A DNA stretch of 64,000 nt from a virus. The stretch lies in IMG/VR virus record IMGVR_UViG_3300044957_000619. One strand, 5' to 3'. The translations under genes were made by a program, and so were the position numbers. Below the pieces are notes generated by a model. It worked only from the letters and a program-made list of their open reading frames with translations. It ran no database searches and had not been told where the DNA came from. Numbering within the stretch: position 1 is the first letter of the stretch; every line of letters starts with the position of its first letter. Positions 30,768 to 39,325 of the stretch are shown piece after piece.

Positions 30768-30817
30768 TTATGTCTCCTAATGATTTTCTTATAAATATAA
30801 TACGTTAAGTCCAAACC

Positions 30818-31104: not shown

Positions 31105-31133
31105 ATTATAATGAAAAAGATTGAATTATCCAA
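31105..31133 (-). promoter_or_regulatory. Promoter TTGGAT-N17-TATAAT
   Basis: Exact motif upstream of 31087. Confidence 0.65.
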
Positions 31134-31368
31134 GCATTTCGATTTTATTCATATCAATGGAAATGCTATCTACTGATAGGATGTCCCCATGTATGTTAAA
31201 ATCTTCTCGGGTAGTTAAAGTTGTTCCACCGGGTACATTTGATAGGTCAATGTTTAATCCGTAGCACGTATCATCTACGTATACGTTAACGATTAAATCA
31301 TAACCATCAACCGTATCAACAGCTGTTATGCGTTTATCAAATAAAAATTGTTTTAATGTTAATTTCAT
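31126..31368 (-). CDS. Hypothetical protein
   Basis: ORF with an AGGAA RBS directly after the beta-propeller gene. Confidence 0.55.
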   Translation of the reverse strand: MKLTLKQFLFDKRITAVDTVDGYDLIVNVYVDDTCYGLNIDLSNVPGGTTLTTREDFNIHGDILSVDSISIDMNKIEMLG

Positions 31369-31375
31369 ATATTTC

Positions 31376-33670
31376 CTATGTTATTATGTTTAATAAAGTA
31401 TGCGGAAGGGTATCAAAACCTAGACCCGTTTCATTAAATGTTTGTGTACCAGTATTAAATTCCGTAAGGCGTGTTCCCGATTGATTAATTTTCGCTATAT
31501 ATCCTACGTATGTTCCATTATACGATGTAAAATTATTACCAGCATATATGTTATTATTTATGTCCAAACTAATAGCTCGAGGTGATAAGATTGCCCAACC
31601 AGATGGTCCGGTGCCTACTGCAAATGCAGCATCTCTAGAGCCGTTGGAGTTTATTTTAACTAATCGGTTAGATGTAGAACCAGAATATGAAGTAAAAGAT
31701 CCGCCGGCTATCATTGTGCCATCATTAAATAACTTTATGGCGGATACGGTACCATTTAAAGTTCCGCCGGGACTAAATGTTGAATCTCGAGTTCCGTCGG
31801 TATTAATTCTTGCAAGTCTAACTGCGGAAGATCCAGAATATTGAGTAAAGTCACCGCCAATGATTGTTTTATCGTCAGGCTGAATGGTTATAACATATGT
31901 TATACCTGGTAATCCAGTTCCCGAATTATATGATAAATCTCTCGTACCATCAGTATTTATACGAAGTATTCTGGTTATACTAGATCCGCTATAATTTGTC
32001 ATAGCTCCGACTACAATAAATTTTCCATCAGATTGCATTGCAATAGAAAATGGCGTTCCAGTAAATCCGGTACCGACATTAAACGTTGTATCGCGTGTGC
32101 CATTAGTATTGATTCGCACTATTCCGGGGCTACTAGATCCACTATATGTTGTAAATCCTCCCGTTGCTACTATTTTACCATCGGACTGAATTACTGCATC
32201 AAGTACGCTACCGTTAGGACCTGTTCCAACGTTAAATGTTGCATCGCGCGTTCCGCTTACATTAAGTCGCGTAAGTCTGGTAACACTGGATCCGCTGTAT
32301 GTTGCAAAATCGCCACCTGCAATGAGTTTTCCGTCAGATTGAGTAACCATGGTATATACGGTATTACCAAAACCGGCTCCCATGTTAAAAGTCGTATCAA
32401 TAGATCCAGAATTATCTAATTTTATAATTCTATTATATGCAGGAGCATCGTATAAGGTAAAGCTTCCACCTAGATACAAACTACTTCCAGACACCAATGT
32501 AGTCCCAACTCCGGCATTAAAGCCTCTCGTTGTTTGACCGTTAAATGCAACACTGCCCGTATTGAATGTTAAATCTATAGTGCCACTCGGTGATGTTTTT
32601 ACAAATCGATTGACCGTTGAACCGCTATATGTTGTAAAATTGTTTCCAACATATACGTTTCCTGCAGAATCTAAAGATAATCCATTTATTGTATTGACTG
32701 TAACACTATTAATACCTGCTCCTACGTTATAGGAGGCATCTCGATTGCCGTTAGATAATATTCGAGCTATACTAGTTTGAGTGCTGCCACTAACAGAGGT
32801 AAAAGCACCAACACATAGAATTTTTTGATCGGGTTGTACTTTTACGGCATATACCAAGTTATTAATAGTACCCGGATTGAAAGTGGCATCTACGGTACCA
32901 TTAGTGTTTAATCGCATTAAGCGAGTTACAGTTGACCCACTATATTGTGTTGCTCCGTGACCTATAACAATTTTGCCGTCTGATTGAATGTCAACTGCAT
33001 AACCTACACGCGTTGTTGCAGTAAACCCAGTTCCATTATTAAATGTTGTGTCTAGAGTACCATTGGTGTTTATTCTTAGTGAGCCAGTTCCAATAGCCGA
33101 ACCTGAGTACGTAGTCATGCTGTTTCCAACTATAACAGCTTTATCGTCACTTTGTATGGCAACAGCAAATCCGTTTTGGTTTAGGCCAGTTCCAATGTTG
33201 TATGTTGTGTCGTATGTTCCGTTGGTGTTAAGTCTAGCAATACGATTTCTTGTTGATCCACTATATGTTGTAAATGCTCCCGTTGCAACTATTTTACCAT
33301 CGGACTGAAGTTTTAAATCATGTACCGTACCATTGAATCCTGTTCCAACGTTAAATGTTGCATCGCGCGTTCCATTAGTATTCACTCTTGCAATACATGG
33401 CGACGACGATCCTGAATACGTTGTAAAGTTTCCTCCCATTATTATTTTTCCGTCGGATTGAGTAACCATGCATAAAATGGAATTGTTAGCACCGCTAGTG
33501 CCCATATTGAATGTAGTGTCTACCGAACCAGATAAATCAGTACGTAAAATTCTAGTATATACTGGTTGTTCGTATGTTGTGAACGCACCACCTATATACA
33601 TGTAGTTTAGCGCTCCTGGAATTTCAATTCCAAGAGTAAACGACTGAATAAATGCAAAAGGTGTAAACAT
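31376..33670 (-). CDS. Delta-60 repeat (DUF5122-like) beta-propeller protein, putative receptor-binding/fibre tip
   Basis: About 13 repeats of QSDGKI..GG.FTTYSGS....RLNT.GT.D.TFN.GTG. Confidence 0.8.
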   Translation of the reverse strand: MFTPFAFIQSFTLGIEIPGALNYMYIGGAFTTYEQPVYTRILRTDLSGSVDTTFNMGTSGANNSILCMVTQSDGKIIMGGNFTTYSGSSSPCIARVNTNGTRDATFNVGTGFNGTVHDLKLQSDGKIVATGAFTTYSGSTRNRIARLNTNGTYDTTYNIGTGLNQNGFAVAIQSDDKAVIVGNSMTTYSGSAIGTGSLRINTNGTLDTTFNNGTGFTATTRVGYAVDIQSDGKIVIGHGATQYSGSTVTRLMRLNTNGTVDATFNPGTINNLVYAVKVQPDQKILCVGAFTSVSGSTQTSIARILSNGNRDASYNVGAGINSVTVNTINGLSLDSAGNVYVGNNFTTYSGSTVNRFVKTSPSGTIDLTFNTGSVAFNGQTTRGFNAGVGTTLVSGSSLYLGGSFTLYDAPAYNRIIKLDNSGSIDTTFNMGAGFGNTVYTMVTQSDGKLIAGGDFATYSGSSVTRLTRLNVSGTRDATFNVGTGPNGSVLDAVIQSDGKIVATGGFTTYSGSSSPGIVRINTNGTRDTTFNVGTGFTGTPFSIAMQSDGKFIVVGAMTNYSGSSITRILRINTDGTRDLSYNSGTGLPGITYVITIQPDDKTIIGGDFTQYSGSSAVRLARINTDGTRDSTFSPGGTLNGTVSAIKLFNDGTMIAGGSFTSYSGSTSNRLVKINSNGSRDAAFAVGTGPSGWAILSPRAISLDINNNIYAGNNFTSYNGTYVGYIAKINQSGTRLTEFNTGTQTFNETGLGFDTLPHTLLNIIT

Positions 33671-33674
33671 AACT

Positions 33675-34202
33675 TTATATCATATTTCTTACGGAACTTA
33701 CAAAAATAAGCGATGAATCAAACGTAATCATTGTTACTATATCAATAGCATTTGCTACTGCTGATCCAGTGTATGCAGACCCGCTTGGCTGATCAACGAA
33801 ACTTGGAAAACTTACTGTTCCTGTTCCCAAGGATCCTTGAGTAACACGTATATTTACTGTTTGTCCTGGGTTTATATTTGTTGGGTTAATATGGGTGTTT
33901 GCTCCGTCGACAAGTGCTAAGGTAAAAAAGTTGTTAGCAGACACGTTAACTGAAGCAGTATTTGAAGTAATTGAAAGTGCAGACACTTGCCCTCGAAGTG
34001 AGCCTGTAATAACCAAGGATTGGTTAAGTGGATTGATGAATGAAGCTGTTGCTGCAAATGATGCTGATGTTGCAAAACTACTTGATAATGCTTGAGAAGC
34101 ATATGAAGCGGTTCCTAATAAACTGCCTGTTATATGTGGTGCATACAAAGAATTTAGCGAAGCATTAGATCCTGATATTATGATCTTTTTCCATGACGGC
34201 AT
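33675..34202 (-). CDS. Short fibre/adaptor protein
   Basis: MPSWKKIIISGS N-terminus; TGSLLGTASYA fibre-like repeats. Confidence 0.55.
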   Translation of the reverse strand: MPSWKKIIISGSNASLNSLYAPHITGSLLGTASYASQALSSSFATSASFAATASFINPLNQSLVITGSLRGQVSALSITSNTASVNVSANNFFTLALVDGANTHINPTNINPGQTVNIRVTQGSLGTGTVSFPSFVDQPSGSAYTGSAVANAIDIVTMITFDSSLIFVSSVRNMI

Positions 34203-34217
34203 ATTGTTTTCCTTTTG

Positions 34218-34279
34218 TGTTGTGGTTGGTTACATACACTTATGCCGTGCGTGTGCCCACTTCCTTGCGGCCTACAACA
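34218..34279 (-). ncRNA. c-di-GMP-II riboswitch-like structured RNA in a 5' UTR
   Basis: TGTTGTAG GCCG CAAGGAAG TGG GCACACGC A CGGC ATAA GTGTATGT AA CCA A CCACAACA. Shows P1, P2 (TGG/CCA) with an AA bulge, P3 and a GCCG/CGGC pseudoknot; lies between a late promoter motif and the RBS. Confidence 0.6.
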
Positions 34280-34292
34280 TTTATAATAAATA

Positions 34293-34469
34293 TCACTGTT
34301 TTAGATATTGCTCTTGCAATTTCAAGATGATATTGTAAAACGTTTCTACTTGATTACCTCGTACAGAAACATCTTTTAACAACAACAACAAAAATTCAAT
34401 TTCTTGTTTTGTTAATTGATTTTCTAGTTGCTGTTTTGTTTGCGATTTTAACTTGTCAATTATGCTCAT
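34293..34469 (-). CDS. 58-aa hypothetical protein
   Basis: Manual translation MSIIDKLKSQ...LTKQEIEFLLLLLKDVSVRGNQVETFYNIILKLQEQYLKQ. Confidence 0.65.
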   Translation of the reverse strand: MSIIDKLKSQTKQQLENQLTKQEIEFLLLLLKDVSVRGNQVETFYNIILKLQEQYLKQ

Positions 34470-34483
34470 AACTTGTTTTATTT

Positions 34484-35053
34484 TTATGCGTAAATATAAA
34501 TATCTCCGGTATTTGAATCAACATGTATTGTACCATATCCATTACCCGAACCACCATATATTGGAGCTAGGGATGGTGCAGAAACACTTGTTTCTACTGC
34601 TCCTGCATACACAACTGGAGTAAACGAATTACCGGTTGTGTCAAATGATGACGTGAATCCCCAACGCGTTGTGCCAAAATCATACCCATATAATTCACCA
34701 ACGTTTTGAGTACCTTGTTGAACTACGATACCACCGTCGCCTGCAGTATTAGAGCCCGATGCAAATAACACAAATCGATCTGCAACAAGTAAATTAGCGG
34801 TATTTTGAAATGAAGCCGTACCTAATACGACTAAATCGCCCGTTAATGTTAATCCAACAAATGATGGAGAATCTGTTGTCTGTAAACCTAGATCTATGCT
34901 AAGTCCTGCAACGCCATTGTTAGTAAGACGTGCTTCGCCTTGTGCTGGCGATGATAATGCAGATGAAGAAATTGCAGATGTTATATAGCCTGCATCATTG
35001 TTTAATTGCGAAACATTACTGCCAGATACTATTACTTTTTTCCAAGTTGCCAT
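34484..35053 (-). CDS. Short fibre/structural protein
   Basis: MATWKKVIVSGS N-terminus; LTLTGDLVVLGT beta-helix-like segment. Confidence 0.55.
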   Translation of the reverse strand: MATWKKVIVSGSNVSQLNNDAGYITSAISSSALSSPAQGEARLTNNGVAGLSIDLGLQTTDSPSFVGLTLTGDLVVLGTASFQNTANLLVADRFVLFASGSNTAGDGGIVVQQGTQNVGELYGYDFGTTRWGFTSSFDTTGNSFTPVVYAGAVETSVSAPSLAPIYGGSGNGYGTIHVDSNTGDIYIYA

Positions 35054-35087
35054 GTTTTTAAATTCCTATTTTATATAAATATACGCA

Positions 35088-38633: not shown

Positions 38634-38659
38634 TGTTACATTCCTTTTTCATATAAATA

Positions 38660-39325
38660 TCAGTATGTTTCGTTTAGAAGTTTTAAAATTTCATCTAAAG
38701 CTATATGTCTATGATTATCTAATAATATAATTTCATTAACATATTTTGATTTAGTTAATTTTGGAACTTCATGCACTGCTGAATCATTTCCGAATTTTAA
38801 ATCAATTTGATATCTATCGCCTGTTAATATCATTATACTTTCTTTACCTAGTCTAGACAATACCATTTGAAGTTGTTGTTTAGTTAAATTTTGAAATTCA
38901 TCAACAATACAAACTGCATGATCAAATGTACGACCTCTAAAATGTGCTAAAGAAACTAATTCGATATTTTCTTCTCGTTCCATTTTTTCTAAAATATCAG
39001 GTTTATTATAAACTTTACGCATGTTGCTACGCAACGGTACTAGCCATGGCTCCATTTTTTCTGATAACGATCCTGGAAGAAACCCATTATCTTCATTTGA
39101 TACTGTTGGTCTCGTTATGATAATTTTATTAATTTGTCGTTTAAAAAACATATCTAATGCAACTTGTACTGCTAATAATGTTTTTCCAGATCCCGCTTTA
39201 CCTAAAATAAAGTTAAATGGCGTTTCTAAAATTTTTGCTTTTGCTTGTTTTTGTTCTTCTGATAATGTAATAGAAAATTTAATATCAGTTTTAGGTAGAG
39301 TTTTTTCCCGATTTTGAGTAGTCAT
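38660..39325 (-). CDS. phoH: PhoH-like ATPase
   Basis: GKAGSGKT, ITRP, GFLPG, RGRTF, VDEFQN, GD..QID, HRH. Confidence 0.93.
   Translation of the reverse strand: MTTQNREKTLPKTDIKFSITLSEEQKQAKAKILETPFNFILGKAGSGKTLLAVQVALDMFFKRQINKIIITRPTVSNEDNGFLPGSLSEKMEPWLVPLRSNMRKVYNKPDILEKMEREENIELVSLAHFRGRTFDHAVCIVDEFQNLTKQQLQMVLSRLGKESIMILTGDRYQIDLKFGNDSAVHEVPKLTKSKYVNEIILLDNHRHIALDEILKLLNETY

Follow-up and report, generated by a model that had tools for sequence, protein, structure and literature searches.

A conserved three-way-junction RNA in the leaders of tail-fibre genes of aquatic phages

On the comparative evidence assembled here, the 62-base island that precedes a fibre operon in IMG/VR virus record IMGVR_UViG_3300044957_000619 is a real, widely conserved three-armed RNA, its fold being backed by comparison among relatives and not by the lone sequence. 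We propose that this phage-specific three-way-junction RNA of about 60 nt, placed at the 5′ end of a late fibre mRNA, probably gates the translation of fibres that begin MP[S/N]WKK, a reading that we hold with some reservation. Full-text literature searches found no published description of this leader RNA family, and Rfam 15 holds no match to it. The text of a 2023 catalogue of 10,006 viral structured-RNA candidates makes no mention of fibre genes, and an unnamed entry of that catalogue may correspond to the element described here (PMC10690425).

The leader RNA and its covariation

Read 5′ to 3′ on the minus strand of the window (the whole 64-kb stretch of DNA that was analysed), the intergenic stretch 34292-34203 comprises the motif ATATTTAT, an island with a GC content of 0.51 against about 0.25 in nearby intergenic DNA, the hexamer AAGGAA (34214-34209) and the ATG of a 175-aa ORF, as the initial annotation of this DNA had described. 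The copy of ATATTTAT at 34293-34286 (minus strand) overlaps the TGA stop of a 58-aa ORF upstream, and its 3′ end lies 6 nt 5′ of the first paired base of the RNA. The motif had been taken for a late promoter, and its distribution agrees with that view. It occurs 31 times in the window versus 20 ± 4 expected, a count reached by none of 100 shuffles; 23 of the 31 copies are on the minus, coding strand, and at the sites checked against ORF starts they stand 20-30 nt upstream. ATATTTAT is, from this enrichment and placement, likely a late promoter element of this phage group. Copies are found 20-31 nt before the ATG of structural genes at, for example, 30791-30798, 34496-34503, 35075-35082 and 38653-38660 (all minus strand). 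In relatives, TATTTAT ends 4-10 nt before the start of the RNA model or of its closing helix P1, and the transcript probably begins at P1 or next to it. Since the promoter motif of other late genes lies only 20-30 nt from the ATG, the RNA would amount to an insertion of about 60 nt into an otherwise short leader.

The arms of the RNA can be followed along the minus strand. P1 joins UGUUGU, a bulged A (34273) and GG (34279-34271) to CC-ACAACA (34225-34218), and its 3′ strand, ACAACA (34218-34223), ends 15 nt before the AUG. Hairpin A (34263-34270), CC-GCAA-GG with a GNRA loop, is 100% paired in 77 distinct sequences. It is followed by the junction strand AAG, the UGG that forms the 5′ strand of P3, and G (34256-34262), invariant in the family alignment of 77 distinct sequences save for the middle G of UGG; UGG (34259-34257) pairs with CCA (34229-34227). 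Hairpin B (34233-34255), the variable arm and the P3 arm of the initial annotation, carries the 9-nt apical loop ACGGCAUAA. All four of its modelled pairs covary, and a C:A mismatch in its stem in the window is a U-A pair in the relative L007. The invariant 3′ core UAACCAACC (34224-34232), again defined from the family alignment, holds the AA bulge, the CCA that forms the 3′ strand of P3, an A, and the CC at the top of P1. Folded alone, the island adopts approximately the P1, UGG/CCA and P3 structure that had been drawn for it; its single-sequence folding energy does not exceed chance relative to shuffles (z = -0.85, or -1.0 with flanks), and because these z-scores are not significant they carry no weight for or against structure.

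Relatives were found through IMG/VR homologues of the 175-aa protein. Many phage genes that start MP[S/N]WKK have a homologous element upstream, with its parts in the same order. It opens with the P1 5′ strand, which includes a bulged base and is followed by GG; next come a hairpin of the form CC...GG, the strand AAGUGGGC and the arm that varies between members, and GUAACCAACC then leads into the P1 3′ strand. A covariance model, R1, was built from 25 of these sequences (alignment A1). Its single match within the window is 34216-34280 (minus strand), at 51.2 bits and an E-value of 2.6e-13. The model has 90 matches in 100 IMG/VR sources, among the matches listed by the pattern scan, and 97 in 100 further sources, among the matches listed for a UAG/CUA subclass; at least 187 IMG/VR loci match it, each with one match.

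The family alignments bear out the stems of the initial annotation, which had proposed collecting the homologous leaders upstream of WKK genes. When sequences are fitted to the model (alignment A2), 96.5% of cells are paired, 14 of 18 pairs show compensatory changes and covariation is 0.418, versus 0.146 for shuffled alignments (0/500 reach the observed value) and at most 0.123 for slid controls. The result does not depend on fitting: alignment A1, made with MAFFT and not structure-fitted, gives 97.0% paired cells and a covariation of 0.381 (shuffled 0.124, slid controls at most 0.139), and alignment A3, from a second sequence set, gives 96.1% and 0.336 (shuffled 0.144, slid controls at most 0.094). 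Compensatory changes are seen in all four helices of the family alignments. In P1 they affect 7 of the 8 pairs, GG/CC becoming GA/UC in 7 sequences, and in hairpin A, whose stem varies from 2 to 9 bp across the family, the inner pairs covary between CG and UA. G-U and U-G pairs are abundant (UG in 30/77 and 27/65 at one P1 pair). They would be A:C mismatches on the opposite strand, and the structure therefore belongs to the sense RNA.

The consensus fold thus described, consisting of P1 with its bulge and GG/CC, a GNRA-type hairpin A, UGG/CCA, a bulge and the variable hairpin B, encloses two invariant junction strands, AAGUGGGC and GUAACCAACC. Across 77 distinct sequences, 17 positions of the junction show no or almost no variation. 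In family numbering, A43, A44, G45, U46, G48 and G49 are present in 77/77, a change of G47 to A is accompanied by one of C95 to U, and in the 3′ core U91, C94, A96 and A97 are invariant and A93 becomes U jointly with the change of G47-C95 to A-U. The middle pair of UGG/CCA is accordingly UAG/CUA in a large subclass, with the second bulge base changing from A to U alongside (A in 73/73 UGG members versus U in about 78/87 UAG members). This three-way covariation links columns 47, 95 and 93, corresponding to window positions 34258, 34228 and 34230, with few exceptions (GUAACUAACC, 3 sequences), and suggests a base triple in the core of the RNA.

Two further pairings were rejected. The initial annotation had placed a GCCG/CGGC pseudoknot between the 5′ junction and the P3 loop. 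Family-wide, its 5′ segment is instead the fully paired CC-loop-GG hairpin, with a GNRA loop in the window, most P3 loops are 3-6 nt long and lack CGGC, and L032 retains GGCAUA/UAUGCC, yet has no GCCG. Pairing of UUGGC, at P1 and hairpin A, to GCCAA was dropped as well, being absent from members with UAGG.

Gene context and phage distribution

The leader precedes a three-gene operon on the minus strand whose ORFs of 175, 764 and 80 aa are present as first annotated. The 175-aa gene (33675-34202) starts MPSWKKIIISGS and falls in phrog_9017, tail fiber. The 764-aa gene (31376-33670) encodes a beta-propeller protein with 12 repeats of DUF5122 (PF17164; E 5e-127), and the 80-aa ORF (31126-31368) has no family match. 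A tail sheath gene is located further downstream of this operon. Residues 24-175 of the 175-aa protein match relatives (L001-L013) at 68-80% identity with the first 23-61 residues unmatched, and its N-terminus alone matches other loci; judged by these alignments, the fibre gene of the window seems to join a docking module straight to a terminal domain.

An ORF beginning MP[SNA]W[KR]K and spanning 98 to more than 1600 aa lies within a few nucleotides downstream of 77 of the 80 RNA matches examined, in keeping with the view that the element is a conserved, structured cis leader of a fibre operon. Because ORFs of very different length share the leader, the RNA accompanies a conserved N-terminal module, whatever the fibre body. 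The usual features of a cis-acting leader are present: a sense-strand 5′ position, a fixed short distance from the start codon and a single gene family. Complete or near-complete carrier genomes hold exactly one copy. Three full-scoring copies stand without an MPxWKK gene, at L120:11256-11315(-), L156:11483-11541(+) and L054:1803-1861(-); the first is followed by MSNSENF (241 aa), the second by a short ORF some distance away, and the third by MPNYLSYY (81 aa), which may be what is left of a fibre start. The complete contig G001 has no RNA copy.

Neighbouring genes were also compared. A second fibre-type gene in the window (34484-35053, minus strand) starts MATWKKVIVSGS and has ATATTTAT 22 nt upstream, at 35075-35082, with no structured leader; MA[TS]WKK paralogues without the RNA are likewise present in relatives. 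From this pattern we infer that two fibres share a docking N-terminus and that only one of them would be gated. The gene directly upstream of the leader (34293-34469, minus strand) encodes a 58-aa helical protein with no family match and no informative atlas neighbour. In 105 of 144 distinct loci a homologue precedes the RNA by 31-1034 nt (median 238) in the same orientation, which may reflect plain synteny or mark a candidate partner.

The leader RNA is essentially confined to phages: a search of 185,579 species genomes recovered true copies only in three MAG contigs. Among cultured phages the 175-aa product had no match, and of two leader queries one had no match and the second matched the immuto phages. 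Flavobacterium phage vB_FspM_immuto_2-6A (NC_055915.1) carries the element at 137891-137947, eight nucleotides before a gene annotated 'putative tail fiber-like protein'. No RNA copy was found in Microcystis phage Mel-JY01, whose sheath protein is the closest cultured one to that of the marine subclass. A study of 7-deazaguanine DNA modifications (bioRxiv 10.1101/2023.04.13.536721) mentions the cultured carrier phages by name 11 times.

Predicted start-site masking and the case for a proposed translational gate

In the window, the loop of hairpin B contains an anti-start sequence, ACGGCAUA (34248-34241, minus strand), complementary over 8 bp to the initiation region UAUGCCGU (34203-34196, minus strand; AUG at 34202-34200). 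The predicted duplex energy is -10.7 kcal/mol, and the predicted probability that the AUG is unpaired is 0.01-0.03. The GGCAUA/UAUGCC complementarity is kept among 59 distinct members with a GGCAU loop, and position -1 is U in 53 of these 59 versus 35 of 83 other members, the members of the subclass being related to one another so that the -1 and loop counts are not independent. A C:A mismatch prevails at the position adjoining GGCAU, and the loop-start complementarity shows little true covariation. In the marine subclass hairpin B is short, and UUGGCA-type loops complementary to UGCCAA (5-7 bp) are carried by a lengthened hairpin A. That two different arms aim at the same target is the best argument for start-site masking as the output of the RNA. 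A loop-start duplex of 6 bp or more is present in 19% of leaders versus 3% of control windows, and many short-hairpin members have no obvious anti-start loop.

The position of the fold points in the same direction. In 58 of 72 leaders 8-12 nt separate P1 from the AUG, and the end of P1 lies inside the ribosome footprint of the AUG. Bacteroidota largely ignore Shine-Dalgarno sites, and AAGGAA may therefore be irrelevant. Only 32% of leaders have the consensus P1 in their MFE structure, and the mean energy of the consensus fold is 1.2 kcal/mol higher than the MFE; folds above the thermodynamic optimum are typical of RNAs that need tertiary or effector stabilisation.

We envisage the following sequence of events. 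Transcription would start at or adjoining P1, and the folded leader, ending about 10 nt before the AUG, would hide the initiation site; in the window this would be accomplished by pairing of the hairpin B loop ACGGCAUA with UAUGCCGU. The invariant junction would form a pocket for a putative trans-acting effector, either a small molecule or a protein, and the effector would shift the balance between masked and open states and so set the amount or timing of fibre made. The 17 invariant junction nucleotides and the three-way covariation argue for a defined tertiary core, which we count in favour of such a gate. To our knowledge a structural gene is an unusual target for a metabolite riboswitch, and this counts against a gate with a small-molecule effector.

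It is possible, if unlikely, that the element acts constitutively and needs no effector, a stable 5′-terminal fold serving to protect the fibre mRNA or to fix a low rate of translation. Its location at the very 5′ end, past the promoter motif, would suit such a role, as would an AUG predicted to be masked by default, and no effector is known. Yet the 17 invariant junction nucleotides and the covarying triple, held across more than 140 distinct sequences, far exceed the needs of a protective hairpin, most leaders have a thermodynamic optimum other than the consensus fold, and P1 is weak and AU-rich.

The proposed gate resembles several systems in part. The T4 gp43 and RegA operators are phage translational operators in mRNA leaders. 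The leader pseudoknot of T4 gene 32 is a phage translational operator as well (summarised in PMC10690425). Like these three, the RNA is a structured leader beside a start codon, present once per genome and coupled to the product of that gene, and it offers a plausible means of matching protein supply to assembly. The T4-type operators, however, are simple hairpins or pseudoknots with a known protein, whereas here a three-way junction with an invariant core precedes a virion fibre gene. As in the SAM-II, SMK box and preQ1-II riboswitches, the would-be aptamer ends within the ribosome footprint, part of it may pair with the initiation site and there is no terminator. Unlike them, the phage RNA would mask the AUG and a Pro codon and not a Shine-Dalgarno site, and the putative masking loop is borne by different arms in different phage subclasses.

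The c-di-GMP-II comparison and the remaining explanations

The initial annotation had proposed the leader as a candidate class II c-di-GMP-like riboswitch on the strength of its core strings and topology. The strings themselves stand: UGGGCAC and GUGCAACC are truly conserved in c-di-GMP-II, and the likeness of the phage UGGGC...GUAACCAAC, which adjoins P1 and mirrors the strands of the binding pocket, is real. Membership in the class does not follow. The RF01786 consensus runs from P1 (11 bp) through A, P2 (ggC), a kink-turn (gaUGAa), a hairpin with a UGGGCAC loop, gGA-Gcc and AGUgGUGCAACCGgC to the P1 3′ strand, and a pseudoknot forms between UGGGCAC and GUGC[AA]CC. The ligand site of c-di-GMP-II is the meeting point of three helices; there A69 reads one guanine of the ligand, A70 intercalates and G73 reads the other (PMC13715770, which cites the structures 3Q3Z and 22MT). 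The numbering used there, U60-A61...A69 A70 C71 C72 G73, fits the RF01786 consensus string AACCG.

There are several likenesses. Both RNAs are 5′ leader elements in which three helices meet at a conserved site. Both have UGGGC and G(C/U)AACC(G/A)(g/A)C strings, the latter immediately 5′ of the P1 3′ strand, and a segment of the phage 3′ core UAACCAACC resembles GCAACCGgC of c-di-GMP-II. The same module of a helix, an AA bulge and a second helix is stacked on P1 (here UGGGC / GU-AA-CC-A-A-C), and the ligand-contacting A69 and A70 have equivalents in A92 and A93.

There are also differences. The UGGGCAC of c-di-GMP-II lies in a hairpin-loop pseudoknot with GUGCAACC, whereas the phage UGGGC and GUAACC close a local, covarying hairpin. 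In place of the P2 kink-turn (gaUGAa / gGA), the phage hairpin A is a continuous stem of 2-9 bp with a GNRA or other loop. The strand order differs, and with both the loop pseudoknot and the kink-turn absent, the shared topology that had been claimed does not hold. The phage P1 is short and AU-rich and not about 11 bp long, its string GUAACCA differs from GCAACCG (C68 to U, G73 to A in 77/77), the equivalent of G73 being A in all members and apparently paired with U, and the element is confined to phages, where a structural gene follows it. Nor is the AA bulge constant: it is AA in the UGG subclass (75 and 73 of 77 at its two positions) and AU or UU in half of the family, with 78 of 87 UAG-subclass members so changed. 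The A70 equivalent thus covaries with a base pair, which argues for a structural triple rather than a ligand contact.

Model searches agree with the structural comparison. Rfam 15 returned nothing relevant for the whole window at the gathering threshold or for 701-nt and 86-nt regions at E<=10, and RF01786 and its variant RF03169, the search that the initial annotation had called for, gave no match to the leader RNA even at E<=10 in the 86-nt search. The gathering threshold of RF01786 (clan CL00127) is 53.5 bits; for real c-di-GMP-II members taken from a metagenome scan, the tool used here gives 70-82 bits. RF01786 scores highest in the close relative G003 at places other than the leader, and an IMG/VR scan for the c-di-GMP-II 3′ core yielded only coding-sequence look-alikes. 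Judged by sequence and model, the leader RNA is not a member of the c-di-GMP-II class, every testable feature of which fails in it. One soil metagenome contig has two such riboswitches, a c-di-GMP-II and a c-di-GMP-II-GAG, in divergent orientation on its two strands with about 190 nt between them (L237:1764-1848(-) and L237:2034-2118(+)).

A looser kinship would have the leader be a cyclic-dinucleotide riboswitch akin to c-di-GMP-II, a minimal form of the P1/P2/P4 junction, rearranged and lacking the pseudoknot, whose AA bulge and neighbouring bases bind the ligand; given the differences just listed, we consider this improbable. The A in place of G73 would make c-di-AMP, cGAMP or a CBASS signal likelier ligands than c-di-GMP. 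The signalling repertoire of the host order bears on the choice: none of the 61 Flavobacteriales genomes sampled (G005-G078) yielded a GGDEF domain, and the host c-di-GMP or biofilm signal that had been proposed is unlikely for that reason, whereas the DAC (c-di-AMP cyclase) domain is common in the same set (45/61). Three carrier phages have no GGDEF and no SMODS genes, and the downstream gene has no link to nucleotide signalling. It is equally doubtful that the junction is a stripped-down, re-wired c-di-GMP-II pocket that binds a cyclic (oligo)nucleotide such as housekeeping c-di-AMP, or a CBASS signal in GGDEF-less hosts.

The glutamine-I riboswitch (glnA RNA, RF01739) offers another likeness, of layout only: P1, hairpin, purine junction, hairpin, junction and P1 follow in the same order. 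The two are similar in size (53 versus 58 model positions), both have GGAAGU(A/G) after the first hairpin, and both occur in aquatic microbes and their phages. However, RF01739 has no match to the leader at E<=10, its conserved CGUUC/GAACG P1 is absent from the phage RNA, whose P1 is AU-rich and varies at 7 of 8 pairs, its 3′ junction is GAAG and not UAACCAA, and the phage RNA is not tied to genes of nitrogen metabolism.

Small ribozymes are common in phages, and a compact junction with invariant unpaired nucleotides might suggest a self-cleaving ribozyme or an RNase processing site that trims the fibre mRNA, an explanation to which we give very little credence: no Rfam ribozyme family matched, the element has its own promoter directly upstream, and its strict 8-12 nt spacing from the AUG and single gene family fit translation control better. 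Least probable of all is a DNA-level element, either a boundary at which recombination exchanges fibre cassettes or a palindrome bound by a protein, for although promoter, leader and the N-terminal 12 codons travel together before unrelated fibre bodies, the abundant G-U and U-G pairs are A:C mismatches on the other strand and the stems vary by compensatory substitution while the loops stay conserved.

The leader thus defines a large RNA family that is present in hundreds of copies on contigs of aquatic phages, and what is new here includes a tested comparison with c-di-GMP-II, the coupling of bulge and base pair as a triple, and the GGDEF/DAC census of the host order, which bears on any second-messenger reading of phage or host RNAs in Flavobacteriales. 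Its invariant junction is of the kind seen in ligand- or protein-binding RNAs, and since its core partly mirrors the c-di-GMP-II pocket, a concrete and cheap ligand panel suggests itself. A cultured carrier and its host, vB_FspM_immuto_2-6A on Flavobacterium sp. LMO8, make the question testable now. If the cyclic-nucleotide reading were true, the phage would read a nucleotide messenger of its host through an RNA and adjust the amount of one tail fibre on its progeny. For the translational gate that we favour, the target is a host-recognition gene and not a metabolic one, and if an effector exists, the leader would place virion composition under direct control at the level of RNA.
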